NCBI GenBank assembly: GCA_913040915.1
Contig: CAJWHW010000001.1
Location: 1 to 64,000, forward strand
Reading direction: 5' to 3'
Length of the DNA: 64,000 nt
Source: an uncultured Fidelibacterota bacterium
GTDB taxonomy: Bacteria > Fidelibacterota > Marinisomatia > Marinisomatales > UBA1611
Part shown: in pieces, positions 3 through 33,854 of the stretch
Layout: every line of letters begins with the position of its first letter
Position numbering within the stretch: the stretch's first letter is position 1
Translations under genes and position numbers: made by a program
The notes under the pieces: model-generated
Databases searched by the model: none
What the model was told of the DNA's origin: nothing
What the model saw: only the letters and a program-made list of their open reading frames with translations

Positions 3-698
3 CTCCGCATCCCCCTTACCTCGGATTACCGCCTGAACTTAGGGTTCACCCACATTGAAAGGTTACCGGATTGGGACAAGCGGTATTGGGCTGGTCATCC
101 AGGATTTACACTGGGGCTTGATATGGCTGTTCCAAGAGCACCCAGACGCAGATTAGAAGTAGGACCATCCGGCCCAACTAATTTGTATGGGCCTTCAGGA
201 GTTGCGCCTGGGATGGAAAATGTACCGTTACATCGGGACTCCACAATAACTATGGCTAATATCGCCGTTGAAACTCTACGAGATTCCATGGCACTAATGA
301 ATAATGAAATGAGAAATCTTTTAGTCCGATTATCGGCAATGGAACAAAATTCTAAATTTTTGACTGATTCATTGAATTCATTACAGTTAGAAACAAATGT
401 TTCAGAAAAAAATATGAATGAAGCATTAAGACATTTATCTAAGTCATTGAGATACTTTTATGCTGGAGATTACCGGGAGGCTTTGAAAGAAGTAGACCTG
501 GCTTTAGAATTAAATCCTAATTTGGCGTTAGCCTATGCCCGCAGAGGGTCAATCTATTATAAATTAGGGGATGTGCAGAGAGCTACTATTAATTGGAATT
601 TAGCACTACGATTGGATCCAGAGTATACAGACGTGAGGAATATTCTAAAAGCTCTACATGAAAATAAAATAAAATCAGCAAGTTTGAACGAGGAATAA
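3..698 (+). CDS. 5'-truncated protein: probable outer-membrane beta-strand region, coiled coil and C-terminal TPR repeats
   Basis: The frame of ORF 123..698 is open back to base 3 (LRIPLTSDYRLNLGFTHIERLPDWDKRYWAGHPGFTLGLD), so the gene probably starts before the window. TPR pattern ALELNPNLALAYARRGSIYYKLG...ALRLDPEY. Confidence 0.75.
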   Translation, partial: LRIPLTSDYRLNLGFTHIERLPDWDKRYWAGHPGFTLGLDMAVPRAPRRRLEVGPSGPTNLYGPSGVAPGMENVPLHRDSTITMANIAVETLRDSMALMNNEMRNLLVRLSAMEQNSKFLTDSLNSLQLETNVSEKNMNEALRHLSKSLRYFYAGDYREALKEVDLALELNPNLALAYARRGSIYYKLGDVQRATINWNLALRLDPEYTDVRNILKALHENKIKSASLNEE

Positions 699-2443: not shown

Positions 2444-4186
2444 ATGAATAAGGTGAAAACAAATAAAATATCCATTATTGGAGCAGTTATAGCGGTCACA
2501 CTGCTCATTGGGCAAGGAGGAGGGTACTTATCACAAAAACTGATGGTGGAAAATAATATTCGTGGACGAGTAAAAGATGCTTTGTCCAAAATAATTGATT
2601 CCCAAAAGTATGTTATCAATGTTGATGTGGAATTAGAAGTTCTGGATGAAGTAAATGAACAGATCACGGTTTTTTCTCAACGCGATACTGATAATCGGGC
2701 TCCAACAACACCTGCAGAAAAAACAGCAGATGCGCTTGTCAAAATTCAGAAAAAAATGGCGATGGAGACTCAACAATCAGAAGAAAGTTATTCAGTAGGG
2801 CTTCCAATTCCTGGATTTGAAGTAGATGTTACCAAACCTAAAGCTGATGTATCGTCTATTACTCAATCAACGCCTATATCCCCTAGAACAATGGAGCCAA
2901 TGGATCTTACGACAGGTTCTGATAAATCAGATGAAGAAATGGTGGATAAGGTACTGTCACGCAAGCGTCCTTCACGAGCGCAAGTGAAGCGTATGGATTT
3001 AACACTTATTCTTCAGGAAGGGGCAGCGCCTGAATTAATTGAAAATATTCGTCAGCTTGCAATGGCTGCATCTAAGTTTGATCGTAACCGCGGAGATAAA
3101 CTTACTATAATGACTGCCAGTTTTAAAGAGCGGAGAGACCAGCGCTCTGCTGAGCAGATTATGTTAAAAAATATTGCTGAAAAAATTGATCTTTTAGAGA
3201 AAAAACGAGTTGCTGAAAACACAGATTGGCGAGATGAAATACAAAAATATCGTGATGAAGAGACAGCTCGACGCCAAGAAGATAAATCTTTCTTTGAAAA
3301 ACAGCTTAACCAGATGGAAGAACAAGCAAGGGCAGAGGCCTATGCTCAAGAAAAGAAAGAAATGCTTCGACGAGATTCCTTGAAAGTAGCCAAACTGAAT
3401 AATGAAATTTCTGCATTGAAAGACATGCTAACTATTACACATGAAGAAGATGCTGAAAAGCAATCAAAGGTGGATTCCACCCGCTTTGCAATGCTGGATA
3501 ATGAGTTGCAAAGTCTTAGACGAATGCTGCTTCAAGCTATTTTAAAAGATTCTATAGAAGCTCAGCAGCAAGCACAGGCACAAATCGAATTAGAATTAGC
3601 ATCTAGAGAAGAAGAAAAAGCAAAGCGTGATTCATTAATTGAAGAAAAAATAATGGCACTTGAAGGTGTGCAAACAGAATTAGATGCACTACAAGCTGAG
3701 CGATCAGAAGGCTTAGGCACTTCCCAATTATTATTAATAGCTTTTGGACTTTTATTAATAATTCTTATGGTGGCACTTGTTTTTGTTATGAACCGTAATA
3801 AGCAACAAGCGCCTATGCCCCCATGGATGTATCCACCACCACCACGTCAGCGCAGGAAAAGGCCGAAGAAAAAGCTAAACAAAGCAAAAAAAGAAGAAAA
3901 AGATGAACCAATAAAGGACGAAGTAAAAGAAGAGCCAAAAGAAGAGCCAAAAGAAACACCTGCCGCTATACAAGAACCGGTAGTGCAGCAAGCTACGGGT
4001 GATGATCCAAATGTATTAAAAAGCGAAATTGATGATATCCGAAAATCGGTTGTATCTATGAGTGTGGGGCAACCAGAAAGAACTGCATCCATTGTTAAAG
4101 AATGGTTAGAACAGCCGGCACCGGAGCCTCCTGCAGCACCTGAAACACCTGATGATGATGGCGCTGAAGAAGAGGACGAAGGCTAA
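2444..4186 (+). CDS. Divergent FliF (MS-ring)-like protein: RBM3 only, long coiled coil, one C-terminal TM and FliG-binding tail
   Basis: Split-RBM3-like segments (VKDALSKIIDSQKYVINVDVEL; LPIPG; VKRMDLTLIL...AASKFDRNRGDKLTI), TM at about aa 429-449, C-terminal PERTASIVKEWL, directly upstream of fliG. Confidence 0.7.
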   Translation: MNKVKTNKISIIGAVIAVTLLIGQGGGYLSQKLMVENNIRGRVKDALSKIIDSQKYVINVDVELEVLDEVNEQITVFSQRDTDNRAPTTPAEKTADALVKIQKKMAMETQQSEESYSVGLPIPGFEVDVTKPKADVSSITQSTPISPRTMEPMDLTTGSDKSDEEMVDKVLSRKRPSRAQVKRMDLTLILQEGAAPELIENIRQLAMAASKFDRNRGDKLTIMTASFKERRDQRSAEQIMLKNIAEKIDLLEKKRVAENTDWRDEIQKYRDEETARRQEDKSFFEKQLNQMEEQARAEAYAQEKKEMLRRDSLKVAKLNNEISALKDMLTITHEEDAEKQSKVDSTRFAMLDNELQSLRRMLLQAILKDSIEAQQQAQAQIELELASREEEKAKRDSLIEEKIMALEGVQTELDALQAERSEGLGTSQLLLIAFGLLLIILMVALVFVMNRNKQQAPMPPWMYPPPPRQRRKRPKKKLNKAKKEEKDEPIKDEVKEEPKEEPKETPAAIQEPVVQQATGDDPNVLKSEIDDIRKSVVSMSVGQPERTASIVKEWLEQPAPEPPAAPETPDDDGAEEEDEG

Positions 4187-4203: not shown

Positions 4204-5139
4204 ATGATCAATGACTATCACATGCTCTCAGGACTTCAAAAAGTAGCTATTCTTTTTTCTGTTGTAGGGGAAAGCCTTGCGCTTTCTCTAGTAAAAGGAT
4301 TGTCAAAAACAGAAGTTCGAAAAATTCGATCTACTTTGCGTGAAATGGGTTCTGTATCCTTCTTAGTGAAAAAAAGGGTTATGGAAGAATTTTATTTTGG
4401 ATTTTTAAGTGAACAGTTTAATGGCAATACCCAAGAAGATGGCCCTATCCAACCTTTTGAGTTTTTAACAGAATTGCAAGATGAGCAATTACTAGCCTTG
4501 TTAAACAAGGAGGACCCACCGGTTGTAGCAATGGTTTTAGCTCAACTTGAGCCCGAAAAAAGGATGCTAATTCTGGATAAAGTAGACCCAATTGAAAAAG
4601 GTCAAATTTTGATAGAATTAGGCTCGTTAGAAGATATTCCTTTGGAAGGCATAATTGAAGTTGCAGCTCGATTAAAGGAAAAATCTTCTTATTTACCTCG
4701 GACTACAGAATTTTCTCGTGGCGGCGCAAAAGAAATAGCTGATTTAATTGGTGAAATGAGTGCCGATGATGCTGAAAGGTATATGCAGACCTTACAAAAT
4801 GAAAATCCAGAGCTTTATAAAGAAGTTAAATTGCTTGTGCTTACCTTTGAAGATATTCTAGGCAATTTCCCAGATGGGATATTGCGTGACCTGATGAACT
4901 CTGTTGAGCTCGATGACTTGGCAATGGCAATGAAAGGAATTGATCAAGAAACTGTGGATAGGGTAATAGGAAATCTTCCACAAAAGAAACAGGCAATGTT
5001 TGAACCGGTTGAAGGGCCAAAGCCTAAACGCGAAGTTGATAATGCAAGAAAGATTATAGTGTCAGCTGCCAAACAGATGGAAAAAGACGGAGCATTTAAT
5101 TTAGCTGACATGATGGGTGGTGGAGAAATGGTCGAATAA
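4204..5139 (+). CDS. fliG: Rotor protein FliG (divergent)
   Basis: LSGLQKVAIL N-terminus, EDPPVVAMVLAQL (EHPQ-box equivalent), GG linker, LTFEDI (MFxF equivalent), LAMAMKG, GPKPKREVDNARKII. Confidence 0.88.
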   Translation: MINDYHMLSGLQKVAILFSVVGESLALSLVKGLSKTEVRKIRSTLREMGSVSFLVKKRVMEEFYFGFLSEQFNGNTQEDGPIQPFEFLTELQDEQLLALLNKEDPPVVAMVLAQLEPEKRMLILDKVDPIEKGQILIELGSLEDIPLEGIIEVAARLKEKSSYLPRTTEFSRGGAKEIADLIGEMSADDAERYMQTLQNENPELYKEVKLLVLTFEDILGNFPDGILRDLMNSVELDDLAMAMKGIDQETVDRVIGNLPQKKQAMFEPVEGPKPKREVDNARKIIVSAAKQMEKDGAFNLADMMGGGEMVE

Positions 5140-6055: not shown

Positions 6056-8752
6056 TTATCCTAAGCTTGCTTGGGCCGCTGCCAACCTTGCAATAGGCAC
6101 TCGGAAAGGAGAACAACTTACATAATCTAAGCCACTCTCTTTGCAAAAATGAATAGATGAAGGGTCTCCACCATGTTCACCACAAATTCCAATCTTTAAA
6201 TCATTATTTACACCACGTCCCAGCTTAACAGCCATTGAAACGAGCTTGCCTACTCCAGTTATATCTAAGCTTTGAAAAGGATCGCCAGTTAAAACATTTC
6301 GTTCTAAATAGTCAGGTAGAAAAGAGGCAATATCATCTCGACTAAAACCGTAAGTTGTTTGAGTAAGATCGTTTGTGCCAAAACTAAAAAATTCTGCATG
6401 TTCTGCAATTTCATCTGCGGTCAGACAAGCTCTAGGAAGTTCAATCATAGTTCCTACTAAATATTCAAGCTTAATACCTAATTCATTTTCGATATCTTTT
6501 GCAACGGTTCGGATAATTTTTTCTTGATCTGTATATTCAGTAACGGTCCCTACAAGTGGAATCATAATTTCAGGAGATACAGAAACATTGTCTTGAGTGA
6601 GTTCAGCTGTGGCCTCTAAAATGGCTCTAGCCTGCATCTCTGTAATTTCTGGATAAGCAATCCCCAATCTACAGCCCCGATGACCTAGCATTGGATTTAA
6701 TTCATGAAGTCCAGCAATGCGCTTTTCTACTTTGGAGGTTTCTAGGCTCACATGAGTTGCTAATTCTTCTATCTGATTTCTTGTTAGAGTCATGAATTCA
6801 TGAAGAGGAGGGTCCAAAAGCCGTATAGTTACTGGCTTTCCTTCCATTGCTTTTAAGATTCCCTTAAAGTCTTCTTTTTGAAAAGGAAGCAGTTCCATCA
6901 CAGCGGCTCTTCGGTCTGATTGATTATCAGCCAAAATCATTTTTCTCATAGCTAATATTCGTGTTTCATCAAAGAACATGTGTTCTGTACGACAAAGCCC
7001 AATTCCCTCGGCCCCAAATTGGATTGCCTGTGCAGCATCTGCTGGGCTTTCGGCATTAGTTCTTATTTTTAATGAACGAAACTCATCTGCCCATACCATT
7101 AATTCTTTGTATTCTTTATGAGTATCGGGGTCTGCGGGAATAAGATCTACCTGTTCTGCGTAAAGGTGTCCCACTGTACCATTCATGGTTACCCAATCTC
7201 CTTCTTTTAAAATAATATCTCCAATGGATACTTCTTTCGCAGCTACGTTAATGTGTAAATCACTACAACCAACGATACAGCATTTTCCCCATCCTCGAGC
7301 TACTAGTGCAGCATGAGATGTCATCCCGCCTTTGGCAGTAAGAATGGCTTCAGCAGCATGCATGCCATGGACATCTTCTGGAGAGGTTTCTTCCCGTATT
7401 AAAATCACTTGTTCTCCCTTCTTGTGCCATTCTTCTGCATCATCAGCTGTAAAAACAACTCGTCCTTTAGCGCCACCAGGACCTGCTGGTAACCCTTTTG
7501 CAAGCAAAGTTGAATTTTTTTCTGATTCTGCATCTAGCATGGGATGAAGTAATTCATCAAGTTGTTCCGGATTCACTCGCATGATGGCCGTCTTCTTATC
7601 AATCAGGCCTTCGTTAGCCATATCAACAGCCATTTTAATTGCTGCACTACCATTTCGTTTTCCAACCCGAGTTTGAAGCATCCATAGTCTTCCTTCTTGG
7701 ATCGTAAACTCAATATCCTGCATATCCCTATAATGTTTTTCTAAATTAGTTCGAATATTATCTAATTGTGTGTACAGTTCTGGCATAGATGATTCTAAGG
7801 AAGGCAGTTCCTGAGTATCTGCTGTCTTTGTTGCCTCATTTAACGGATTTGGTGTTCGTAGACCTGCCACCACATCTTCACCTTGAGCATTTGTCAGCCA
7901 CTCTCCAAAAAATTTATTTTCTCCAGTTGCGGGGTTACGGGTAAATGCAACACCAGTGGCCGAATTGTTACCCATATTGCCAAATACCATAGATTGTACA
8001 TTAACAGCGGTTCCCCATTCATCAGGTATATTTTCTATCCGGCGATAATTAATAGCTCGTACGCCATTCCAGCTTTGAAAAACTGCTTTAATGCCACCCC
8101 ATAGTTGTTCCATTGGTTCATCTGGAAATTCAGCATTCAGAGTTGTTTTTATTTCAGATTTAAATGAATTAGTTAGTGTTTTCCAATCATCAGCTGAAAG
8201 ATCCGTATCGTTAGTGTAATTATTTTGCTTTTTATAATCATCAAGTAATGACTCTAGCCTATGGCGGATACCTTGACCGTCTTTCGCTTCAATCCCTGCA
8301 GCTTTTTCCATAACCACATCTGCATACATCATTATCAGTCGCCGGTAAGCATCATATACAAACCGGGGGTTATTTGTTTTTTTAATTAGGCCGGGTATAG
8401 TCTTTGTTGTAAGCCCAACGTTTAATACCGTTTCCATCATCCCCGGCATAGAAGAACGTGCACCAGAACGCACAGACACTAATAATGGATCATTTTCATT
8501 TCCAAATTTTGTGCCCATAATTTTTTCAGTAAAGGAAAGCGCTTCATTAACTTCCTGATCTAATTCACTCGGGAAAGAATGATTATTATTGTAATAGTAA
8601 GTACAAACTTCTGTGGTGATTGTAAACCCAGGGGGGACGGGGATATTCAAATGATTCATTTCTGCAAGATTAGCCCCTTTCCCGCCTAATAAATTTTTCA
8701 TGCCAGCTTTACCATCAGCTGTACTATTTCCAAACTGATATACGTATTTCAT
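6056..8752 (-). CDS. ppdK: Pyruvate, phosphate dikinase
   Basis: LLGGKGANLAEM, VSVRSGA, GGMTSHAA (phospho-His), GIGLCRTEHMF, FSFGTNDLTQ, GICGEHGG. Confidence 0.98.
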   Translation of the reverse strand: MKYVYQFGNSTADGKAGMKNLLGGKGANLAEMNHLNIPVPPGFTITTEVCTYYYNNNHSFPSELDQEVNEALSFTEKIMGTKFGNENDPLLVSVRSGARSSMPGMMETVLNVGLTTKTIPGLIKKTNNPRFVYDAYRRLIMMYADVVMEKAAGIEAKDGQGIRHRLESLLDDYKKQNNYTNDTDLSADDWKTLTNSFKSEIKTTLNAEFPDEPMEQLWGGIKAVFQSWNGVRAINYRRIENIPDEWGTAVNVQSMVFGNMGNNSATGVAFTRNPATGENKFFGEWLTNAQGEDVVAGLRTPNPLNEATKTADTQELPSLESSMPELYTQLDNIRTNLEKHYRDMQDIEFTIQEGRLWMLQTRVGKRNGSAAIKMAVDMANEGLIDKKTAIMRVNPEQLDELLHPMLDAESEKNSTLLAKGLPAGPGGAKGRVVFTADDAEEWHKKGEQVILIREETSPEDVHGMHAAEAILTAKGGMTSHAALVARGWGKCCIVGCSDLHINVAAKEVSIGDIILKEGDWVTMNGTVGHLYAEQVDLIPADPDTHKEYKELMVWADEFRSLKIRTNAESPADAAQAIQFGAEGIGLCRTEHMFFDETRILAMRKMILADNQSDRRAAVMELLPFQKEDFKGILKAMEGKPVTIRLLDPPLHEFMTLTRNQIEELATHVSLETSKVEKRIAGLHELNPMLGHRGCRLGIAYPEITEMQARAILEATAELTQDNVSVSPEIMIPLVGTVTEYTDQEKIIRTVAKDIENELGIKLEYLVGTMIELPRACLTADEIAEHAEFFSFGTNDLTQTTYGFSRDDIASFLPDYLERNVLTGDPFQSLDITGVGKLVSMAVKLGRGVNNDLKIGICGEHGGDPSSIHFCKESGLDYVSCSPFRVPIARLAAAQASLG

Positions 8753-8804: not shown

Positions 8805-11800
8805 TTAAAATGTAGGTGAGAAATAACGAATCTCTTTCAAATTACCATTTTTATCATAAAAGAACCATTTGTCTACCATCTTCCCATTGCGGTATGCACC
8901 CTGCATTTCTTTTCTAGACCTATCATAATCCCACCAGCTGGTCCAGGTAGCATCTTTTTTCCCACCAGCATAATATCCTTCTGTTAGTCTTCCATCTTCA
9001 AACCAAGCTGTCCATTTGCCTTCTCTAGTTCCATCGCTAAATGTTCCCTCTTGAACCTTTTTGGAATTGTTATCCCAAAATATCCACAGCCCATCTGCAT
9101 TACCCTCGTTTAAATTACCTTCTTTTTCTTTTACACCATTTTTATGAAAAAATGTCCAGTGACCATTCATAATGCCACTATCGTAAGTCCCATGAGATTT
9201 AATATGCTCATTATCATACCACTCGGTCCACTTCCCATGTTTTTCCCCATTTTTATAACCACCTTGCTCTTGTTTCCCTCCGCTCCATGGCAAAACAGGT
9301 TCTGGTTCCGGTATATCTACAAGAATAATTTCCGGCACATCTTTGCCGCTTGGGTACCATTTTACCCACTGACCATCTTTTTTACCTTTATTGGTGCGAC
9401 CCAAAAACAAATAACCAACTTCTTGGTTTTCTTGAGTGATAATTCCAGTAAATGGGATTTCATCACCAATTTTATAAAAGATAGAATTGCGCTCTACTAA
9501 ATCTTCTAAGGCAATGTGCTCTAGTCCTGTTCCAAAATCAAATTCAAAATCTTTTTCACCCTTTGAATTCCAATAAGTCCATATACTTTCAGGTAATCCA
9601 TCTTTGAAAAACCCTTCCCTTTGCATAGTGCCATCTTCATAATAATATGTAGTTAAACCTTCACGAATACCTGCCTGATGGAATCCCTGCTCTTTTATTT
9701 GGTCACTGCCATGGTACCAAATAATCCAAGGGCCTTCTGGCGTATCAGACTTATATGTAGTCATCGTGGTACGATAACCATCTTCCCAATAAGTACTTGG
9801 GCCATCAAGTCGACCATGTTTATAATATTTTTCATCTTGTTTTTCTTCTGTTGTAAGCCACAGAGTTGATCTACCATCTCGCTTACCTCCTGAAAATGTT
9901 ATTTCTTCAGAAACAGAGCCATCCGTCTCATAGTACAGCCACAGTCCATCTTGCTCATTTGTAATATAGTTGCCCTCTGATTGTTTTACACCAGTTTCAT
10001 ACCACCAAGTCCAAACGCCATTTTTCTTACCATCTAAGTAGTGACCCTCCATTTCCTTATTATCATTAAGGTACCACCACCAATTCCATAGGACTTCCTC
10101 ATTTTCAGCTTTATAAGTGCCCCCGTTATACGACCAACTCCCATTGGTAAAAGTCAAATTATGATCGTGTTCATACCACCAGGTCCATTTTCCATGAGGT
10201 TTTCCTTTATGGTAAGTTTGTTCCATATGTAGATGGCCATTAGGATACCAGTATTTATAACTTCCATCCACGTTGCCCATATCAAATGTTCCACGTTCTT
10301 TTGGTAGACCGTCTTCATACCATAGGGTCCAATCACCGTGTTTTTTGCCGCGATAATAAACGCCGTCAACTTCTTTTTGTCCATTACGGTACCATTGCAC
10401 CCACTGCCCATCCCTCTTTCCTGAAGAAAAGCGTCCCAATAGGAGATAATCTTTAATGCCGCCTGTTTCAACCACCATACCAGTATAAGGTTTATGTTGA
10501 CCAATTTTATAAAAAATACCATCACGATTTTCCAATTCAGCAATACGAACCTGATCTAATCCCATTCCGTAATCAAACCCAAAATCCTTTGTCCCATCAA
10601 CCTTGTAATAACTCCAAACCCCTTCTGGTTCATTATCTCGGATTACGCCTTCGCGGTCTTTATTACCATTATCATACCAAATAGTGACTTTACCATTAAT
10701 ATCACCATTCACAAAGGTTTCTTCTAATTTTTTATGATCTGAATTATTCCATTGAGTCCAGATTCCGTGTTTCACTCCAGTTTTATATGTCCCTTCACGA
10801 TCTTTAACTCCATCTGGCCGCCACCAAATCCACTGACCATCCATTTCTCCATTACTGAAATTTTCCTGTGATTTCAATGTCCCATCATCATACCAAATTA
10901 ACCATTGACCGTGTTTTTCACCTTGGTTGTATTCACCTTCTATAACTTTATAGTTATCTGTATTCCATTCCAACACCTGACCATTTTTAATTCCTTTATC
11001 AAAACTAATTTCTTTTGTTTTTCGGCCGTCATCAGCCCAATATGTCCATTTGTTATCTAGCTTATTTTCAGCATATTGTCCAGTTTTTTCCTTAACAATA
11101 CCTCCTTCATACCATGATGTCCAATCTCCGTTTAATTTCCCATTTACGTATGTAGCTTGAAATTTTTTATTTCCATTTTCATACCATGATGTCCAAACAC
11201 TGTCCCGTTCCCCTTGAGTAAATTTTCGTTCTGATTTTTTTGCACCGTCTGAGAACCATTGGATCCAAAGTCCATCTTGTTGCCCATCAACAAATCGAGT
11301 TTGTTCTTTTTTAATTCCTGTCTTATAGTACCAAACCCATAAACCATTTTGTTTACCATTATCATAAAGACCTTCTTCAGATCTATTTCCATTTTCAAAC
11401 CAACGAATTAAAGTTCCGGCCAACTTACCACCTTGATAATTGGCTTCTTCCTTACGATTGCCATTATTATACCACATCGTCCATAATCCTTCTCGGTTAC
11501 CAGATGCATAGGTGCCTTCCATTTTCATTTGAGGAGGGTCATAAAATGTGTCTCCGTCTAGATCTAGCAAAACAGTTTCTGTAGAATCCCAAACACCATT
11601 ACCCTCACCCTCATCTTGAGTGTTGGGTTCACCATCTTCTCCAAAATCTTGATATACTTCGCCCTCGTACCAAAATGTCCAGAGTCCATCCCGAACTCCG
11701 TTGTTATAGTTACCATCGGTTTGAAGTGCCCCACTGGGGTAATATGTTTTCACCAACCCGTCGTTTTGAGCAAGCGCCACTGACGACAGAATGATAGATA

Positions 11801-11825
11801 AAACCAGTATTTTCCGCATGGTCAA
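8805..11825 (-). CDS. Large exported MORN-variant (YwqK-like) repeat protein; probable start ATG at 11819
   Basis: Signal peptide ending ALA-Q; dozens of ~24-aa repeats of the form EGxYxxGxxxGxWxxWYxNG. Confidence 0.85.
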   Translation of the reverse strand: MTMRKILVLSIILSSVALAQNDGLVKTYYPSGALQTDGNYNNGVRDGLWTFWYEGEVYQDFGEDGEPNTQDEGEGNGVWDSTETVLLDLDGDTFYDPPQMKMEGTYASGNREGLWTMWYNNGNRKEEANYQGGKLAGTLIRWFENGNRSEEGLYDNGKQNGLWVWYYKTGIKKEQTRFVDGQQDGLWIQWFSDGAKKSERKFTQGERDSVWTSWYENGNKKFQATYVNGKLNGDWTSWYEGGIVKEKTGQYAENKLDNKWTYWADDGRKTKEISFDKGIKNGQVLEWNTDNYKVIEGEYNQGEKHGQWLIWYDDGTLKSQENFSNGEMDGQWIWWRPDGVKDREGTYKTGVKHGIWTQWNNSDHKKLEETFVNGDINGKVTIWYDNGNKDREGVIRDNEPEGVWSYYKVDGTKDFGFDYGMGLDQVRIAELENRDGIFYKIGQHKPYTGMVVETGGIKDYLLLGRFSSGKRDGQWVQWYRNGQKEVDGVYYRGKKHGDWTLWYEDGLPKERGTFDMGNVDGSYKYWYPNGHLHMEQTYHKGKPHGKWTWWYEHDHNLTFTNGSWSYNGGTYKAENEEVLWNWWWYLNDNKEMEGHYLDGKKNGVWTWWYETGVKQSEGNYITNEQDGLWLYYETDGSVSEEITFSGGKRDGRSTLWLTTEEKQDEKYYKHGRLDGPSTYWEDGYRTTMTTYKSDTPEGPWIIWYHGSDQIKEQGFHQAGIREGLTTYYYEDGTMQREGFFKDGLPESIWTYWNSKGEKDFEFDFGTGLEHIALEDLVERNSIFYKIGDEIPFTGIITQENQEVGYLFLGRTNKGKKDGQWVKWYPSGKDVPEIILVDIPEPEPVLPWSGGKQEQGGYKNGEKHGKWTEWYDNEHIKSHGTYDSGIMNGHWTFFHKNGVKEKEGNLNEGNADGLWIFWDNNSKKVQEGTFSDGTREGKWTAWFEDGRLTEGYYAGGKKDATWTSWWDYDRSRKEMQGAYRNGKMVDKWFFYDKNGNLKEIRYFSPTF

Positions 11826-14072: not shown

Positions 14073-15719
14073 ATGGCAATAAAAGAATTCTATCAATCAA
14101 TTATGAAAGCAAATATAGGCTTCGCATTGTTTCACAAACTTCTTATTACTGTAACAGCCACTACTGCTCTTATTGCTGAAAACTATTTAGTAGATCTTCA
14201 ATATATCGTTCGAGCGAATGGCATTGAAATGAGATTAACTTATTCATCCCCATTAAAAAATGATAAAATTATTGCCTTGAAATCTCATCACAAAAAAATA
14301 TACTTAACATTATTGGATGTAAAACATCCCATTGAACTTTTTCCTAGTATGAAACCAGACAGTCCTATTTCTAGTGTGGTTATCGATGATTTTGATGGGT
14401 CTACCCAACTTGCCTTTATGTTTAAACAGCCTATAATAGATTATGGTATTATGAATACTCCCATAAACAATGAGTCAAAGTTATTTATATATTTATCTAG
14501 TTCAAAAAACCTAGTCAATCTGGATACTCAATTCCATCAAACCAAATTGCAACTTCCAAGTTTTCCTGAATATAAAGTGCAGGTATTTGATACAGCTTTT
14601 TCCCAAGCCCGAGATGAACTCGGAGCAAATGCAATTTTCAAATACAATAATAAATTCTACATAACAAATTATCTTGATGAGTATACAGAAACTCCCATAT
14701 CCGTTTTTGTTAAGGATGTTCAAGGGGAAGAAGTCAAGCAAGAAAAAATTATAAAAAATCTAAATTTGATAACAACAAACACAGAAAAGAAAAAAGAACA
14801 AAACTCTACAGAAGAGTTTGATCCACTTTTGAAACAATTATATAATCATTTGCCAAACACTCCATTAACTCCCCCAACACCTGTATTACAACTTGCGCCA
14901 AAACAATATGCGATAGAGTCAAACAAAACAGCTATTATCTCACAAACGGAACATAAGACAAATGGAAGATCAGCAAAAGAAATTCCTATGGAGCCTATAT
15001 ATGAGACTCCTCTCAAAAGATTTGCAGAACCCCAAGTAGCTATGATAATCCAAAATGACTATCAAGTAAGCAGTCACGTTTCAGATGATTTTTCTATTTT
15101 AAATCAGGTAGGATTTGAGCCTTCTATCGGTTTTCCTAAAGAGAATTCCTCAGATATACCAGAAATAGTGGAGTGGATAGACCATGAAATCTTTGAACAT
15201 ATGGAAGAAACTGAATTGGGTTGGCAATCTCCAAAAGAATTAAATGTTCCTGCATTTAAGCGGAAAGAATTACCGCAATCAGAATTAGACAAAAAACAAT
15301 GGTATCATATTAAAAATAATTATAGAGATAAAACAAATGCAGGAATAAGAGTCACATCTAATATGGATGGTGTCCCTATATATGTTGATGGAAAAATGAT
15401 GGGTAAAACACCATTAAATGGAGCGATAAAAATACAACCAGGATGGCACCAGGTAAGTGGTTTTTCTCCTGTATTTGCCCAAATTGTAGCAGATGGTGGC
15501 TTATATGAGCTTGGCGCTGATCCGATTACCCGCAACAATCAACTTTTTGGATCAAAAATGATATACGTTGAAATTGGAAAAGTAACAGTTGTGAATTTAA
15601 AGTTTAATAAAATTGACCCCGAGCCTACTAAAAAATGGATCCAGAATGCTGGTGGCATGATGATAGGTTTTCCTGTGATTATGGCTATGTTTGGTTTTAT
15701 TACCTGGGGCATTATATAA
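14073..15719 (+). CDS. Exported protein: AMIN-like N-domain, low-complexity linker, PEGA domain, C-terminal TM
   Basis: PEGA motif IRVTSNMDGVPIYVDGKMMGKTPL...PGWHQV; visible paralogue of 24694..26127; hydrophobic C-terminus. The AMIN call is tentative. Confidence 0.7.
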   Translation: MAIKEFYQSIMKANIGFALFHKLLITVTATTALIAENYLVDLQYIVRANGIEMRLTYSSPLKNDKIIALKSHHKKIYLTLLDVKHPIELFPSMKPDSPISSVVIDDFDGSTQLAFMFKQPIIDYGIMNTPINNESKLFIYLSSSKNLVNLDTQFHQTKLQLPSFPEYKVQVFDTAFSQARDELGANAIFKYNNKFYITNYLDEYTETPISVFVKDVQGEEVKQEKIIKNLNLITTNTEKKKEQNSTEEFDPLLKQLYNHLPNTPLTPPTPVLQLAPKQYAIESNKTAIISQTEHKTNGRSAKEIPMEPIYETPLKRFAEPQVAMIIQNDYQVSSHVSDDFSILNQVGFEPSIGFPKENSSDIPEIVEWIDHEIFEHMEETELGWQSPKELNVPAFKRKELPQSELDKKQWYHIKNNYRDKTNAGIRVTSNMDGVPIYVDGKMMGKTPLNGAIKIQPGWHQVSGFSPVFAQIVADGGLYELGADPITRNNQLFGSKMIYVEIGKVTVVNLKFNKIDPEPTKKWIQNAGGMMIGFPVIMAMFGFITWGII

Positions 15720-20875: not shown

Positions 20876-21490
20876 TTATTTTAGCTTGAAATTAACAGGT
20901 ATAGAGATCCAAACTGCCACAGCTCTTTCCCTCTGGGTCGCAGGTACAAACTTTGTTTTTCGAATGGCTTCCATAGCAGCTTCATCTAAACCTGTATTCG
21001 GCACTCCTTTTAATATCAAAGTTTCTTTTACTCGGCCTTTCTCATCAATAAATGCTTGCACCACAACTATACCTTCAATCCCTGCTTCCTGAGCGATTTC
21101 AGGATAAATAGGTCTAATAGCAGACTTAGGTCTTGGAGGGTCATCATAGGGAATAAATGTAACTCTGGGACCAGATGGCGGAGGTGGTGGAGCATCTAGA
21201 TTTGAAAAATCGTCAAAATCTAATTCATCCAAAGTCAAGTCATCAGCTATATCCTCATCATCAGAAGGTACAGGAATGGATGGTCTGGCCGGTGGAGGAG
21301 TATTATCAATTTGTTGAGTTTGTGGTATATCAATATTTTCAATGATAACTTGATCTACCTCTTCAAATTCCATACTGTTCAAAAAGCGAGGAAAAATTAA
21401 AAAGTTTAAGATTACCAATCCGACCCCAATTAAGCCAGTAATTCGAACCACAACAGGATATTTTTCTTTGAGTGGATTGATATATTCCAC
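20876..21490 (-). CDS. tonB: Energy transducer TonB
   Basis: N-terminal TM, Pro-rich linker, YPEIAQEAGIEG.VVV...IDEKG C-domain. Confidence 0.9.
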   Translation of the reverse strand: MEYINPLKEKYPVVVRITGLIGVGLVILNFLIFPRFLNSMEFEEVDQVIIENIDIPQTQQIDNTPPPARPSIPVPSDDEDIADDLTLDELDFDDFSNLDAPPPPPSGPRVTFIPYDDPPRPKSAIRPIYPEIAQEAGIEGIVVVQAFIDEKGRVKETLILKGVPNTGLDEAAMEAIRKTKFVPATQRERAVAVWISIPVNFKLK

Positions 21491-21900
21491 TAGTCTACCA
21501 GAGTCTTAGATGAATAGTTTAATTTCAACGCTTCCACTTTCCTTAAATTATCATGAATATCTGATATGAGTCCCATTTCAGCTTCTTCATCTCCTTTCAA
21601 AGAAACAACAATTTGCGGGTCTGCTACTCGCTTATCATACATAACCAATGCTACATCGTCTACGGCCAATAGTCTATCATCAATAGATATTAAACCATCT
21701 TTTGAAACCCAAACTTGAACGGTGTGCCGTTTAGATTTCAGCTTTTCTATCCGTTTTGCTTTTGGAAGATTTACAGGAAGACCCGAGTACTCTTTTAAAA
21801 CTGTAGTAACCATAAAAAACACCAAAAGCATAAAAATAATATCTGGCATTGATGCAGTTGGAATATCACTTGAAATTTTAGTTTTTCTTGAAAATTTCAT
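21490..21900 (-). CDS. exbD: ExbD/TolR family protein
   Basis: SMPDIIFMLLVFFMVTT. Confidence 0.9.
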   Translation of the reverse strand: MKFSRKTKISSDIPTASMPDIIFMLLVFFMVTTVLKEYSGLPVNLPKAKRIEKLKSKRHTVQVWVSKDGLISIDDRLLAVDDVALVMYDKRVADPQIVVSLKGDEEAEMGLISDIHDNLRKVEALKLNYSSKTLVD

Positions 21901-22298
21901 TAATTGCTGTTTGCGATAGAGATTCTTTTTGCATCAGCCATCTTTAGCTGGTCAATTACTCTTACGTAATCATTGTATGCTGTCTTTGGATGAGCTTTTA
22001 CAGAAATGATAAGCTTATCATTTGCTCTCAGCTTTTGACCAACAACACGATGGATCTGATCCACATTGGTTGGCTCTTCGTCCAGAAGCACTTTCCCTTG
22101 AGAATTTATCAGACAGTTTAGGATATTTTCTTTCCGAATTTCAATTTCCATATCACCCGGCGGTGGTAGAACAATGCCAAGTCCTTTATCGGTATCAATG
22201 GTGGTTGTTACCAAAAAGAATATTAAAAGTAGGAAAGCGATATCTGCCATTGACGAGGTAGGAATCTCGCCACCTTTAAATCTGCGTTTTTTGGCCAT
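21900..22298 (-). CDS. exbD: ExbD/TolR family protein
   Basis: SMADIAFLLLIFFLVTT. Confidence 0.9.
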   Translation of the reverse strand: MAKKRRFKGGEIPTSSMADIAFLLLIFFLVTTTIDTDKGLGIVLPPPGDMEIEIRKENILNCLINSQGKVLLDEEPTNVDQIHRVVGQKLRANDKLIISVKAHPKTAYNDYVRVIDQLKMADAKRISIANSN

Positions 22299-22312
22299 TA
22301 GCCTGAAATTTT

Positions 22313-22927
22313 CTAGTTTTTGGCTTCCTGCTCGTATAAGTAATCCATGATTTTCACAGATTGCTCTTCCATATCCAGGACAAGCTTATCAATCCGGGAT
22401 ACAAATATATTCTGGCAGGTCTGGATAATCATAGCAACAATTAAACCGAATGCAGTTGTCAATAATGCTTGCGAAATACCTCCAGCAACAACAGCCGGAG
22501 AAATATCATTTGCTGCCTTAATTGCATCAAATGCGCTAATCATTCCAACAACTGTTCCAGTAAAGCCCAGCATAGGGGCTATGGTGATCACGGCATTTAA
22601 CCAAATCATGTTTTTTTCTAGAAAGGCCATTTCTATAGCACCTGCATTTTGGATTGCCTTTTCAACATCATCTAATCCCCGGTGCATTCTGGAAAGCCCT
22701 GCATGGAAAATTGCAGCAACAGGACCATCGGTCTCTTCACAAGTGGTCGCAGCTGCAGTCGCACCATTTTCATCAATTGCGCTTGTAATTTCATCAAAAA
22801 ATGACTGTGAATCAACGGCAGACATCATGAGTGAATAAAAACGTTCAATGGCAAATCCAATTCCAAATAGCAATGTAATCAGGATCGGCCACATAAAGCC
22901 ACCGCCCTCTAAGAAATAATGGACCAT
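22313..22927 (-). CDS. exbB: ExbB/TolQ proton channel
   Basis: GGGFMWPI, APMLGFTGTVVGMI, GISQALLTTAFGL. Confidence 0.92.
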   Translation of the reverse strand: MVHYFLEGGGFMWPILITLLFGIGFAIERFYSLMMSAVDSQSFFDEITSAIDENGATAAATTCEETDGPVAAIFHAGLSRMHRGLDDVEKAIQNAGAIEMAFLEKNMIWLNAVITIAPMLGFTGTVVGMISAFDAIKAANDISPAVVAGGISQALLTTAFGLIVAMIIQTCQNIFVSRIDKLVLDMEEQSVKIMDYLYEQEAKN

Positions 22928-24693: not shown

Positions 24694-26127
24694 TTATATA
24701 TTGGAAATAAGAAAAAGGAAAGCAGTTATCATTGGAATTCCAATAAACCATCCACCTTTTAATTCTCTAGGTTTTATGTGCGGTGTTTTATTATTCACTT
24801 GATTGTATCTAAATGCAACATCCACAATTTTTCCAGATTCAACGTAAATAGTTTCAACACCAAAAGATTGATTATGTACAATGAGATCATTATTGACAAA
24901 AGACCAATTGCCTAGACTTAGAGCTTTTTTATTTGCTGCTTTGAAGCTACTTATTTGGTGCCAACCGGGCTCAACTGATATAATATTTAAAAGCGGTGTT
25001 TCACCAACATATTCTCCATTTACAAAAATAGGTATACCATCCATGTTTGTGTTTACTTGAATACCGCCACTACCATACATCTCAACATCGATGATTTTAC
25101 TGTCTATCTTTTCTGCAAATTGACTTTGTGAGTTATCCGTACCATTATAGGCTTCAATAGCTTCAGATTCACCAGATCTGGTCCATAACTCATGGTTGTC
25201 ATCTGCGCCAGTACTCTCATTGGGTTCAATTGATTCTAAAGCATCGGAGTTTTGTAGAGATGATTTCTCCCTTTCATTTGCCAGAGTCGCCCTCGCTTTT
25301 TCAATCAATGCATTAAACTCTTTCTTTTTAGATTTTTTGGATTTAATAACATCATTGTGGGTCGCCAAACTTTGCTTTGCTGGTTTATGATTTTTTTCAT
25401 TCAGTACGTTGGTTTGGTTGTTATTAAGTAACCCTATTTTTTTAATGTTCTGATAGTTGTTACGGGCTTTTTCTACTCGCAGAGCTAATTCAGATTTATT
25501 TACACCCTTAGGATTAGAATGCTCTATGGTTGTATTTTGATTTACACCGTCATTATTATATTCAGTTGTTTTTTTAGTACTACGTTTTGTCAATAATGCA
25601 ACCTGCTTTGCATCTTCAAAACTTTTGCGCGCCTTTTCCACCCGCTTATTGAACTCAGATTTATTCGAATCTTTTTTATTGGACTCTGCAAGTCTAAATA
25701 CCGAACTACCCTCATTTTTTATATGAGTTTTTAGATTTGCAACTTTAGACTTGCTCATTTCTGTATGAATGAAAACAATTGTATTGGGGCTTGTTTGGGA
25801 GTTAATAATATCGAACCCAACAATAGGCCGACCAATTAAAAAAGCGAGTTGTGTTGAATTTTGAAAATCATCCATTTTAACTTTTTTCAGAGGGTGTTGC
25901 AAGTTTGAAAATGGCAGTTTGGTTGATGGAGGCCTCACCCCAAGAACCGTTAGATAGACCCAACCACGATCAGATTTCCAGCCAATTATATCGTCATCCT
26001 GGATTGGGTCTGTTAAGTCTATATTAACCATAATCCCATTATCCTTGATAGAATAATGAATGTTTTCAATAGATTTTTCTGCCATGCACAGCGATAGCAG
26101 AATGATGAATGTAATCTTATGTTTCAA
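24694..26127 (-). CDS. Exported AMIN-like + PEGA protein with C-terminal TM, paralogue of 14073..15719
   Basis: Signal peptide; DDFQNSTQLAF matches DDFDGSTQLAF of the paralogue; PEGA GIPIFVNGEYVGETPL...PGWHQI. Confidence 0.72.
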   Translation of the reverse strand: MKHKITFIILLSLCMAEKSIENIHYSIKDNGIMVNIDLTDPIQDDDIIGWKSDRGWVYLTVLGVRPPSTKLPFSNLQHPLKKVKMDDFQNSTQLAFLIGRPIVGFDIINSQTSPNTIVFIHTEMSKSKVANLKTHIKNEGSSVFRLAESNKKDSNKSEFNKRVEKARKSFEDAKQVALLTKRSTKKTTEYNNDGVNQNTTIEHSNPKGVNKSELALRVEKARNNYQNIKKIGLLNNNQTNVLNEKNHKPAKQSLATHNDVIKSKKSKKKEFNALIEKARATLANEREKSSLQNSDALESIEPNESTGADDNHELWTRSGESEAIEAYNGTDNSQSQFAEKIDSKIIDVEMYGSGGIQVNTNMDGIPIFVNGEYVGETPLLNIISVEPGWHQISSFKAANKKALSLGNWSFVNNDLIVHNQSFGVETIYVESGKIVDVAFRYNQVNNKTPHIKPRELKGGWFIGIPMITAFLFLISNI

Positions 26128-26296: not shown

Positions 26297-27187
26297 TTAG
26301 AGACCAATATATAGCATTGTTCTAAAAGAGACTCCCTGGAGCGCAGATGCGGGAGAGTCCTTAATTTCATTTTTACCATTTAAAACCCATTTACCTTCTC
26401 TAACGGTCCCTTTATTAAACCCTGCACTAATGCGCAAACCCAATCGCTCCAAAAATTGCCATTTAATTGCTACATATGGTTGAAAATTAAAAAATGTTGC
26501 ACTTACATCCCGCAATAATCCAGGTACTTCTCCTGGTGTAATATCGGGGTCATCGTATTCATCTGCGCTAACACCATAATATAATGTTCCTGTTGAATCC
26601 ATTGTTCCATATACATTACTGAAAACTCTCTCCCATCGAGGGTTCCCATTTTGCTCATCTACAGAAATAGCTGCTCTTCCCAGACCCATTAGGGCGCCTG
26701 CTGACAGTTCCAAATCTTGAAAAACAGGCATAACATATTCTACAGAGGCTGCACCTAGATAAAACGAGAATTTTGCTTCAATAGTTGGATTGAAAAATGA
26801 TGTATAATCTTTGGAATCTTCACCTTGATCAAAAACCCCGTTTGCTTCGCCATTTAAATTATCTTTAAAAACAATAATATCTGGAATTGTGGACACTGCA
26901 GTTGCCCCCATACCTGCGTATCCGCCAATGCGCCATCGTCCAGTTACATGTGCAAACCCTTCTCCACCATGAATAACAAAAGGATTATCAAAGTTTTCTG
27001 GTTTCAAACCCAATCCGGATAGATAATGTGACCCCGGAATAGAATCCAAGCTAATGTACATTGGACTATATCCAATGCCGCCACCAAGAAAATCCTGCGC
27101 CGGATAACTAAACTGCGCAGATAAAATAGAAATGTTGACTGAAATGAATAAAATGAAATTTTTCATATTTAATAGGGTTCTCCGCAT
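26297..27187 (-). CDS. Probable outer-membrane beta-barrel protein
   Basis: Signal ending LSA-Q; amphipathic Gly/aromatic strands (WRIGGYAG, FQPYVAIKWQF, LRISAGF); terminal strand FRTMLYIGL. Confidence 0.65.
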   Translation of the reverse strand: MRRTLLNMKNFILFISVNISILSAQFSYPAQDFLGGGIGYSPMYISLDSIPGSHYLSGLGLKPENFDNPFVIHGGEGFAHVTGRWRIGGYAGMGATAVSTIPDIIVFKDNLNGEANGVFDQGEDSKDYTSFFNPTIEAKFSFYLGAASVEYVMPVFQDLELSAGALMGLGRAAISVDEQNGNPRWERVFSNVYGTMDSTGTLYYGVSADEYDDPDITPGEVPGLLRDVSATFFNFQPYVAIKWQFLERLGLRISAGFNKGTVREGKWVLNGKNEIKDSPASALQGVSFRTMLYIGL

Positions 27188-32900: not shown

Positions 32901-33854
32901 TTAAACATGAAAAAATATACCCATTCGGTATTTTTTGAAGATGATAGATTATGGGTGATATTAGAAACTATTAATGGTCGGACCATTAAGATTAAAGACT
33001 TTTTATGGGAATTTTTCCATGGTGGAAAAGGAAAGCCTCCTAGGGTAGTTGTTGAACGAGTAAACCCAATCAAATTTTCGCTATTAGATTTTCCTGAAGG
33101 AATGGTTGTAGAAGAAGCATCTGGTACAATACGTTGGACACCAAATGTAGAGCAGACAGATGCACACCGAATAACTGCTGTTGTTTCAGATGGCTATACA
33201 AAAGATGAGCAGACATTCGAAATTTATTCAAACCATTTGCCTACAATAGTTTCTAATCCACCGAATATGGGTTTAGTTGGAGAATTATTCAAATATCAGG
33301 TAAGAGTCGATGATAGGAACGAAAACTCAAATTTGGAATATACTCTGCTGAAAGGGCCTCACGGAATGCAAATGGATCGCTATGGAAAGATTTTGTGGGT
33401 GCCAAAAGCAGCTCAGATTAACAATAACACGTTTGAAGTAGCTGTGAGTGATGGTTACGGTACCGATGTGCAGAATAGCAAAATTTTTGTGAATAACGCG
33501 CCTTCAGTCATTTCTAATCCTAAACCTGTAGGCCTCACTGGTCATTCATGGCGCTATAAAATGACAACAGAAGATTTGAATGGAGATAAAGTGGCATATC
33601 GTGCTGTGCGCCTACCGAAATATGCCCGTTTTGATAAAAGGAAGGCTACAGTCGAATGGACACCTAGGAAGAACCAATTAGGAATGAATGATTTTATTCT
33701 AATGGCGGTGGATGAACATGGTGCTACATCAAGCCATGAATTTCAAGTCCATATTTTTCATGACCCAAGCTCTCAACAATTAGTCAATACTGGATGGCCA
33801 CTTATGTTAACTTTTGTAGGTGTAGTATTCGCTTGGGGAATGGCACAGATATAA
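29985..33854 (+). CDS. Large surface protein: FG-GAP propeller, tandem putative-Ig (cadherin-like) repeats, C-terminal TM
   Basis: DLDGDG/DYDGDG/DWDSDG/DFNQD motifs; repeated NxPP...PxGM...G.I.W.P...V.DG units; hydrophobic C-terminus. Confidence 0.8.
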   Translation: MKLSNQISRVFSILIVILNMIQGQKIVHMNGTYDLDGDALLEFIALELDPTHAVFPSTVRYYEIDADGYQTLVWEFTPPDALDGHFVDAQIGDLDGDGAPELVLVMNLSRFGDNATPHVFVATYSWDGSNFSEIPTATLDVGKENRSLRCNNFQLLDQDSDGDQELVLALGSPFRGFAIVNSTATGLSLTKKVRPDELLVGSGLLYVGVVDYDGDGYEDVLAISPEGHTIKAQPFYNIGGVFDSGHLVRKRIDGLSGIIPYSIELTDWDSDGFFDILIPFSSGDIAAFTLTPATLVIEEIPVNPGPLTQFALEDFNQDTFEDILMLSSDINALTLVSGKDGGIEGAENAMRHVPADMQIFSMIPMVKAGQYTGNVLVSGWNGQENSTYVIQLGKISDKLDQGFLITSDFISKRLPDLLSNVQDYEPEVPEVYIEVLPEETKPLQPQQEEKIITDLGQSPGSYIPGTLVPDQQEGKALREQPKATIPKKVVRTLEQPKRPRPKETIGQRLPKHILPRYVLRPGQPFLYEIPRDSTDEFYSFRWENQPPKGMYFLYESQSINWVPTEKQLDAFPLAYLVRMKVDEIVEPTSASTADEQIFKAVPVLESRDEGLWIYVNDPPRFLTQPTITEFIAGSKFRYEPVVQDRNKDANVKLELEIAPEGMTLDNGVLNWKTDSAHVEIYDVRLIATDGFERTAQEFQLFSRAGVKILSNAPEYASVGTPYKYSVKVWRQRPDEKINYKLFFGPDGMKMEPDGTISWIPNPVQVDTAKYAVVVSHGVATDTQYVDLFVNHPPIIKASPNPVNKINVGGIWDFELIIEDPNKNDKLIYTAHELPEGMRMDPYTGRLRWEPTMGELDFHTLKIEISDGHESRMIESDFFVNAPIHIVSVPTMSATVGEEYTYRIMVNDKNKGSLLPFKRVVKVENLSVIRMYSINITDDVALSGVDRYIGDWHNADAIYYHDPKYPADSLVSRLNMKKYTHSVFFEDDRLWVILETINGRTIKIKDFLWEFFHGGKGKPPRVVVERVNPIKFSLLDFPEGMVVEEASGTIRWTPNVEQTDAHRITAVVSDGYTKDEQTFEIYSNHLPTIVSNPPNMGLVGELFKYQVRVDDRNENSNLEYTLLKGPHGMQMDRYGKILWVPKAAQINNNTFEVAVSDGYGTDVQNSKIFVNNAPSVISNPKPVGLTGHSWRYKMTTEDLNGDKVAYRAVRLPKYARFDKRKATVEWTPRKNQLGMNDFILMAVDEHGATSSHEFQVHIFHDPSSQQLVNTGWPLMLTFVGVVFAWGMAQI

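Follow-up and report, generated by a model that had tools for sequence, protein, structure and literature searches.

A FliF paralogue with an RBM3 ring domain and a long helical stalk, encoded beside MotA, MotB and FliG homologues in Fidelibacterota

Flagellar rotor and stator proteins are not normally met outside a flagellum, which is itself assembled round a type III export gate. Their torque core, consisting of the FliF MS-ring, FliG and the stator (MotA5B2/PomAB), is the closest known system to the locus described here, which lies in the first 64,000 nucleotides of contig CAJWHW010000001.1 (GenBank assembly GCA_913040915.1), from an uncultured Fidelibacterota bacterium; this whole stretch is called the window below. 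The protein in question, FliF*, is encoded in a cassette between a MotB-like and a FliG-like gene (the product of the latter being FliG*). It retains the S-ring part of FliF (RBM3 plus collar) and a FliF-type tail, without RBM1/RBM2. Because RBM1/RBM2 and flagellar genomic company are absent and the N-terminal anchor is doubtful, FliF* is best called a FliF paralogue of new architecture. It is rather probably the membrane and periplasmic ring component of an ion-driven machine that is independent of the flagellum and assembled from its own set of torque-core proteins.

With the flagellar torque core this system shares a homologous RBM3/collar, a transmembrane (TM) helix and the FliF tail, a three-domain FliG, an A subunit of the MotA/PomA type, a MotB with plug, channel Asp and OmpA-like domain, and the adjacency of fliF and fliG. 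It differs in that FliF* is without RBM1/RBM2 and probably without an N-terminal TM anchor, while its family has 124–204 extra helical residues between RBM3 and the TM helix. Genes for the export apparatus, FliM/FliN, the rod, the P-ring and the filament were not found in the FliF* genome, FliG* is without the EHPQ and MFXF motifs, and the cassette coexists with a canonical set in flagellated relatives.

Other systems resemble parts of the arrangement. A short FliF of Chlamydia, reported by Bergeron, is likewise a reduced FliF tied to FliG in a flagellum-less organism; in the available part of its description it keeps an RBM2-like part without the SpoIIIAG-like (RBM3) domain, is discussed together with the injectisome and has no long stalk, a reduction opposite to that of FliF* (PMC4768692). 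The SpoIIIAG ring of the sporulation channel offers a stand-alone RBM3-like ring-building fold; to our knowledge its system has no FliG or MotAB partner. GldLM/PorLM, TolQRA and ExbBD-TonB are inner-membrane, ion-driven motors of the 5:2 type, in which an elongated protein spans the periplasm to outer-membrane partners. The likeness here is one of functional analogy only: GldM, TolA and TonB have no sequence relation to FliF*, and their coupling runs via a TM helix inside the stator, whereas that of FliF* would run via a cytoplasmic FliG ring. A comparison with GldM, drawn in a preliminary description of the gene made from the sequence alone, is therefore useful as a working analogy and no further, as no GldM family is among the Pfam matches of FliF* and no GldM_1st was found in the genome. 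PflA/PflB of Campylobacter and FlcA of Borrelia are periplasmic TPR scaffold proteins of complex flagellar motors. Like them, the TPR protein of the cassette is encoded with or beside MotAB and could, by analogy, position stators round the ring; unlike them, it has a beta-rich N-domain. A full-text literature search found no paper on this cassette or on an RBM3-only stalked FliF. In its available part, an mBio survey of stators from 2025 names neither Marinimicrobia nor Fidelibacterota and describes no non-flagellar FliG-linked stator (PMC12505986).

Ring domain, topology and tail of FliF*

The fliF* gene starts 53 bases downstream of the MotB-like gene and ends 17 bases upstream of the FliG-like gene. 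Its open reading frame (ORF) is not due to chance, because 206 cluster representatives among 1.84 billion proteins match the product at E ≤ 0.001, 131 of them at E ≤ 1e-10 and 45 at E ≤ 1e-30; the family is real and fairly small. The preliminary description had listed a signal-like N-terminus, a split RBM3-type segment, a charged helical run, one TM helix, a Pro/basic linker and an ...IVKEWL end, and each of these elements is indeed present. In an alignment of FliF* with 38 full-length family members (A1), the conserved features of the N-terminal part are a hydrophobic stretch ending in Q, followed by YLxQKLxLEN...FVVDVxVEL. Those of the ring part are a variable insert with PIPGF and the segment ...IENVRQV..VAS.FDR.RGD.L.IMTASFK, and in the C-terminal part a helical region and a single TM helix are conserved and, after them, PPPWMYPP, a basic linker and D..VL.SEI..IRQSVVSMSVGQP.TA..IVKEWL. 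A second, narrower alignment (A2) is the basis of the FliF* profile. Mean pairwise identity peaks (0.65–0.73) in three regions, namely the core of the ring, the stalk's first 27 residues and the C-terminal tail. An NCBIfam scan of FliF* returned no named family.

YscJ_FliF_C (PF08345) is the sole Pfam family above its curated cut-off in FliF*, where the full model (1–147) covers aa 47–227 (E 1.7e-5; 25.7 bits vs a cut-off of 23.8); it is stronger in an orthologue (L049; 46.9 bits, E 5.2e-12). YscJ_FliF (PF01514), which covers RBM1/RBM2, has no match in FliF* at E ≤ 1 and none in the genome; the canonical FliF proteins of four relatives match it at E 1e-57 to 1e-59. Among PDB sequences, the family profile finds Salmonella FliF (E 2.1e-8; profile 36–286 on FliF 241–530) and Vibrio FliF (E 7.4e-7). 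An RBM3-only relative of FliF had been proposed in the preliminary description, and the start of this alignment at Salmonella residue 241, together with the missing PF01514 match, bears the proposal out. The predicted mature N-terminus lies only 2–3 residues ahead of the RBM3 helix.

The elements of the RBM3/collar domain are a helix at 26–47, strands at 56–67, 70–76, 169–175 and 178–191, a second helix at 196–209 and a strand at 219–225. An AlphaFold2 model of aa 26–240, made with a 70-row alignment, has a predicted local distance difference test (pLDDT) score of 76.8, with values above 90 in the core and near 50 in the insert. When this ring model was searched against the PDB with Foldseek, the top 18 matches were all FliF RBM3/collar chains (E 1.4e-7 to 2.8e-6; next E 0.1), as the proposed likeness to the RBM3 of FliF would have it. 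VIA-align gave Z 15.4, 15.4 and 13.4 for FliF chains (the last with a root-mean-square deviation of 1.8 Å over 93 residues) and Z 9.4 for the next chain, with PrgK domain 2 at Z 8.2 and SpoIIIAG (5wc3_A) at Z 7.8, rank 14. The two rankings therefore identify the domain as specifically the FliF S-ring module, collar strands included. The resemblance to SpoIIIAG noted earlier holds for the RBM3-like fold; it is weaker than that to FliF, since Z 7.8 is in the range of generic alpha-beta-beta-alpha-beta folds vs 15.4 for FliF, and SpoIIIAG is not among the listed Foldseek matches of the ring model.

The domain is split by an insert that takes the place of the FliF collar loop; its pLDDT is 41–53 over most of its length, and its mean pairwise identity is 0.32. 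Within it, P121, P123, G124 and F125 of the PIPGF motif are invariant in A2, as is R216-G-D218 in the last loop of the RBM3 domain. One relative (L078:6704-8887; 727 aa) has a ring-domain region of 327 residues against the usual ~215, and its collar insert is therefore greatly enlarged.

FliF* begins with MNKVKTNK and 15 uncharged residues, followed by Q24. Across the family, a Q after a short uncharged run (median 15 residues) occurs in 104 of 106 distinct sequences, with G, A or S at position -1 in 101 of the 104. The canonical FliF of the same phylum starts, in contrast, with 20 cytoplasmic residues and a TM helix at 21–39. From the Q pattern and this contrast we infer cleavage between G23 and Q24 and a single-pass mature protein, which would have RBM3 and the stalk outside, the TM helix at 426–451, and the basic linker and tail inside. 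Flanked as it is by the secreted RBM3 domain and the sole TM helix, the helical stretch must be periplasmic; this agrees with its earlier placement in the periplasm, with the basic linker and FliF-type tail on the cytoplasmic side.

The Q-rule of Bacteroidetes is a pattern of signal peptidase I substrates. Since Q comes next in 58 of the 135 crude signal-peptide-like N-termini of the genome, vs a genome-wide Q frequency of 3.2%, the sequences suggest that the rule extends to Fidelibacterota. The same pattern is found in the window at 8805-11825 (-), 26297-27187 (-) and 29985-33854 (+).

On the cytoplasmic side, the C-terminal tail has a mean pairwise identity of 0.68. Its GQPETAsrIVKeWL aligns to the C-terminus of Vibrio FliF, NEPELAAQVVKNWMNDN, a stretch that by itself is not significant, and canonical FliF of the phylum has the same type of tail motif, ...NPEGAAALIRIW. 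The tail is presumed to be the FliG-binding segment. Directly after the TM helix (aa 452–463, 3797-3830), lies PPPWMYPP, which is conserved in the family, P460 being invariant in A2; it may serve at the membrane interface or as a site for a partner.

The cassette and its relation to the flagellum

Searches of species-representative genomes found 187 stretches that encode a relative, and the best 80 of these 187 were analysed. Their record titles are mostly Candidatus Neomarinimicrobiota or Marinimicrobia, with one each of Fidelibacterota, FCB group and SAR86. The genes TPR-MotA-MotB-FliF*-FliG* stand on one strand and in the same order, complete in 67 of the 80 loci (own ORF calling and BLAST); the remaining 13 start or stop inside the cluster at contig ends.

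The stator has the features of a flagellar one: in MotA, four TM helices and a torque loop on the cytoplasmic side, and in MotB, a plug, the channel Asp and an OmpA-like domain. MotA matches the NCBIfam MotP and PomA models (E 2.8e-51 and 7.6e-45) under their equivalog cut-offs (174 vs 394 bits), and the stator is therefore a diverged subfamily. It also matches solved MotA/PomA over its full length (E 3.6e-35), with the loop Arg/Glu and two TM prolines aligned, which we take to be the functional residues of MotA. In MotB, D35 (TFADMM) aligns with the channel Asp of TFSD/TFAD in solved MotB/PomB, and the OmpA-like domain is of the peptidoglycan-binding type.

FliG* has all three FliG domains above their cut-offs and matches solved FliG at E 2.2e-20. 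A comparison of 78 FliG* sequences with three canonical FliG of the phylum revealed a deletion of ~22 residues between the N and M domains of FliG*, which reads EDPP and LTFE where canonical FliG reads EHPQ and MFLF; these sites are less than 60% conserved among FliG*. EHPQR and MFXF are the FliM-binding site and the hinge of FliG, respectively. Their loss, which affects FliM binding and switching, is in keeping with a genome that lacks FliM/FliN and chemoreceptors. FliG* has a conserved charged C-terminal helix of its own, KR.VD.ARK.

In related loci, full-length orthologues of the TPR protein, which is cut by the contig start in the window, have 444–506 aa (~455) and signal peptides. Their layout is a conserved beta-rich N-domain, a Pro/Gly linker, a helical segment and C-terminal TPR repeats; the C-terminal part is 47–86% identical over 51 orthologues. 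The N-domain has no Pfam match (at E ≤ 5, nor in a scan of 24 orthologues) and no PDB sequence profile match (E ≤ 10). A YjbH-like protein-atlas lead (0.93), which would make it an outer-membrane barrel, is no more than a lead, being unconfirmed by Pfam or the PDB profile.

The genome from which the window comes (1.86 Mb, 71 contigs, 85% complete) has a single FliG_C locus, and FHIPEP/FlhA, FliP, FliMN_C, Flg_bb_rod, FlgI, Flagellin_N and MCPsignal have no match in this 85%-complete genome. The phylum was surveyed in 301 sampled Marinimicrobia/Fidelibacterota genomes. The FliF* profile is positive in 197 of these, in 130 of 180 high-quality genomes, in 85 of 103 genera and in 22 of the 25 genomes of the same family as the window, and in 0 of 30 genomes of a family of ~1-Mb genomes. 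FHIPEP is positive in 69 of the 301 (67 above cut-off) and in 0 of the 25 from the window's own family, among which many are 92–99% complete. The preliminary description had concluded that the ring houses no export gate; the missing FHIPEP, FliP and other matches in the genome and the family-wide lack of FHIPEP agree with this. That the FliF* profile just catches ordinary FliF was considered and rejected: two families (f13 and f30) have FHIPEP in 5/5 and 9/9 genomes and the profile in 0/5 and 1/9.

When the two surveys are combined, a strong FliF* match (E ≤ 1e-100) and FHIPEP occur together in 19 genomes. All four such genomes examined carry a canonical FliF (PF01514, 535–538 aa) with its own FliG in a flagellar operon and, apart from this pair, FliF* and FliG* in the cassette. 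The presence of the canonical fliF-fliG pair alongside it therefore makes the cassette a paralogous system, not a remnant. That the gene is a decaying remnant of a flagellum since lost, or encodes the MS-ring of a true flagellum of which the rest is missing from the assembly, is accordingly scarcely credible, even if the genome is 85% complete in 71 contigs and FlhA occurs in 69 of the 301 genomes of the phylum. Such a reading has to face intact full-length ORFs in 197/301 genomes and 85/103 genera, the lack of FHIPEP in 25 genomes of the family, the separate canonical pair in 4/4 flagellated relatives, and the missing RBM1/2, added stalk and altered FliG sites common to the family.

Table 1. 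Coordinates of the cassette genes and of the parts of FliF* in the window
Feature	Position	Strand	Basis or remarks
Cassette TPR protein, 3' part, 231 aa	3..698	+	Pfam TPR_2/TPR_1 at aa 175-208; cut by contig start
MotA/PomA-type stator A subunit, 261 aa	703..1488	+	Pfam MotA_ExbB (PF01618), E 1.6e-26
MotB/PomB-type stator B subunit, 298 aa	1494..2390	+	Pfam MotB_plug E 4.1e-15, OmpA E 4.3e-8
FliF*, 580 aa	2444..4186	+	open frame; RBM3-only FliF paralogue
Probable Sec signal peptide, aa 1-23	2444..2512	+	predicted cleavage between G23 and Q24
RBM3 plus beta-collar domain, aa 26-228	2519..3127	+	Pfam PF08345, PDB profile, AlphaFold2, Foldseek, VIA-align
Variable insert, aa 77-168	2672..2947	+	mostly low confidence; at FliF collar loop position
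Motif P121-I-P-G-F125 within insert	2804-2818	+	conserved
Charged helical stalk, aa 229-425 (197 residues)	3128..3718	+	helices 235-345 and 355-421
Single TM helix, aa 426-451	3719..3796	+	hydropathy window 430-448 = 3.34; helix in model
Cytoplasmic Pro/Lys/Arg/Glu linker, PPWMYPPPPRQRRKRPKKK, aa 452-521	3797..4006	+	low confidence; starts PPWMYPPPP
C-terminal tail with FliF-type motif, GQPERTASIVKEWL, aa 522-556	4007..4111	+	helices 522-542 and 544-556
FliG*, 311 aa, three-domain FliG paralogue	4204..5139	+	FliG_N 52.5, FliG_M 31.9, FliG_C 78.4 bits, all above cut-offs

The helical stalk and the proposed machine

The stalk is 41% charged, with no Pro and three Gly. In the full-length AlphaFold2 model (pLDDT 71.3), block pLDDT within it is mostly 74–90. 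The distance from the end of RBM3 to the TM helix falls into tight classes: among 67 loci it is 191–204 residues in 31, 145–159 in 34 and 124–129 in two, and a cruder parse over 107 sequences gives 202 in the FliF* of the window. The first 27 stalk residues have a mean pairwise identity of 0.73, vs 0.65–0.72 in the ring and 0.32–0.46 in the remaining stalk. Length is thus held while sequence drifts, which fits the role of a spacer. If straight, at 0.15 nm per residue, the stalk would measure ~30 nm here and ~23 nm in the short class. MotB is ~30 residues longer in the clade with stalks of ~200 residues than in that with ~155 (r = 0.83, 67 loci); this correlation is not counted as evidence, because the loci are kin.

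In the machine that is proposed, the N-terminus of FliF* would be cleaved between G23 and Q24, leaving the mature protein held in the inner membrane only via stalk and TM helix. The subunits would assemble a FliF-like S-ring, the oligomeric state being taken over from FliF by homology, and the C-terminal tails would hold a FliG* ring beneath the membrane. Peptidoglycan-anchored MotA/MotB would use ion flow to push FliG*, turning or loading the ring, while a palisade of helices would keep the S-ring-like disc out in the periplasm at a distance of 15–30 nm; there the conserved PIPGF loops of the disc would probably contact secreted proteins of the cassette. RBM1/RBM2 and all export genes are missing, and the ring would therefore house no export gate; the output would be mechanical work on the outer envelope or the cell surface, not protein export. 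In a stronger version the whole is a rotary engine, in which MotAB turn a FliG*/FliF* rotor and a palisade of rigid helices carries the disc that drives the movement of outer-membrane or surface proteins; this version is entertained only tentatively.

Several observations weigh against the flagellum-independent, ion-driven machine or parts of it. The ring, its rotation and the contact between FliF* and FliG* are postulated by homology. In FliG*, the Arg is absent at the position aligned with the Arg of canonical 'PVR'. The genome is incomplete, and the contig begins inside the TPR gene. The phylum has a single cultured member; its description calls it non-motile and, in the available part, mentions no flagellar genes (PMC11652737). 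The remaining points concern the stalk. AlphaFold2 predicts a break in its helix at residues 346–354; its a/d heptad score is 0.528 vs 0.495 +/- 0.023 for shuffles, equalled by 13 of 200; and the stalk may form a lone charged helix, have a kink or fold back on itself. The disc may also sit below the cell wall, because a wide ring of stalks needs a large opening or bushing in the peptidoglycan and FlgI was not found.

The preliminary description had gone further, with a coiled-coil stalk that could reach the outer membrane; a straight coiled coil of this reach was not borne out. Besides the weak heptad signal and the predicted break, no 3.5-residue periodicity was detected across the whole stalk; only segments at ~300–341, 335–369 and 391–425 are coiled-coil-like, and aa 251–299 resemble a charged single helix. 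Any reach of the stalk to the outer membrane, or torque at it, is hypothetical. Work on the outer envelope or surface is the favoured output.

A rotor-stator machine with a folded-back or tilted stalk, whose disc lies near the inner membrane, below the peptidoglycan, and acts in the inner periplasm, perhaps on the wall or on partners near the membrane, would do without the opening in the wall that a rotating wide palisade needs and for which FlgI was not found. Besides the break at 346–354 itself, it can draw on the length difference between the clades (~42 residues), which maps to aa 336–385, around that break. The two arms would differ in length, at 111 vs 67 residues in this FliF* and ~107 vs ~40 in the short class; with a cleaved N-terminus the stalk is the sole tie of the disc to the membrane; and the length classes are tight despite low identity, as for a spacer. 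On this evidence the folded-back arrangement is distinctly unlikely.

The long helix also invites a non-rotary explanation, in which FliF* would be a Tol/Ton-like force transducer or an envelope tether. MotAB would work via FliG* and the TM helix of FliF* on the long helix, pulling or positioning outer-envelope proteins, and the RBM3 ring would mainly be an assembly platform. A long, charged, proline-free helix between a TM helix and a distal domain is what such a device would have, and domain II of TolA may resemble it; TPR and beta-rich proteins that are secreted are encoded in the operon, FlgI, which would supply a bushing, was not found, and the stalk is no clear coiled coil. The stator, however, has a plug and an OmpA domain and belongs with flagellar MotA/PomA rather than with ExbB/TolQ, and a complete three-domain FliG, which in the flagellar motor serves rotation, is kept with its conserved charged helix. 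A separate ExbB/ExbD/TonB-like cluster, recognised by eye, is apparently also present at 20876-22927. The transducer is accordingly judged doubtful, and the rotor machine proposed above is preferred.

Surroundings of the cassette, RNA libraries and meaning

Because the contig starts within the TPR gene, the gene that actually precedes it is not on the contig. In related loci, the same strand carries upstream a CarboxypepD_reg protein of ~390 aa and often a second TPR protein of ~290 aa. A distant relative (27% identical) of the CarboxypepD_reg protein is encoded in the middle of another contig of the genome (C28:9084-10094). Downstream of FliG* in the window is an unrelated pirin. Also downstream of the cassette are a pyruvate phosphate dikinase-like gene (6056-8752, -) and one for a YWxxG-type repeat protein of ~1000 aa (8805-11825, -); both are also found downstream in many loci, which is probably synteny only.

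Farther along, four small ORFs at 20876-22927 (-) resemble, by eye, a TonB C-terminal domain, two ExbD-like proteins and one ExbB/TolQ-like protein, and appear from their sequences to form a separate Ton-type motor in the same window. The genes at 14073-15719 (+) and 24694-26127 (-) are paralogues whose N-terminal domains resemble each other; both products have a long middle part of low complexity and, at the C-terminal end, a hydrophobic helix, and they share a ...NMDG(V/I)PI(Y/F)V(D/N)G...GxTPL... segment.

Three metatranscriptome studies contain contigs that match FliF* at >=99% identity, which is only compatible with expression, as such libraries can contain DNA. Those of X16 cover 2453-2603, 2706-3024, 3340-3608 and 3776-4023, that of X17 covers 2689-2884, and those of X18 cover 2636-2802 and 3700-3848. 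Further contigs lie on motA and fliG*, and a fourth run covers fliG* at 95–99% identity. Parts of the window where no RNA-library contig lies are uninformative.

Marinimicrobia/Fidelibacterota are a phylum common in the dark ocean and for the most part without flagella. In most of its sampled genomes the torque core alone, comprising MotA, MotB, FliG and the FliF ring, is under selection, and the cassette is present with or without a true flagellum; its stalk and its envelope partners are new. Should it rotate, this would be a new use of a well-studied motor and a natural minimal rotor for structural and biophysical work, and it bears on the old question of whether motor or secretion system came first. 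A rotary engine, if true, would show the flagellar torque core to be able to function, and perhaps to have first arisen, independently of the type III export apparatus, and would mean that a kind of motility or surface transport has gone unseen in one of the most abundant ocean phyla. The cassette may also indicate that bacteria relevant to ocean carbon cycling behave in a way not yet recognised, for instance by moving over surfaces, attaching to particles or doing work on the envelope.

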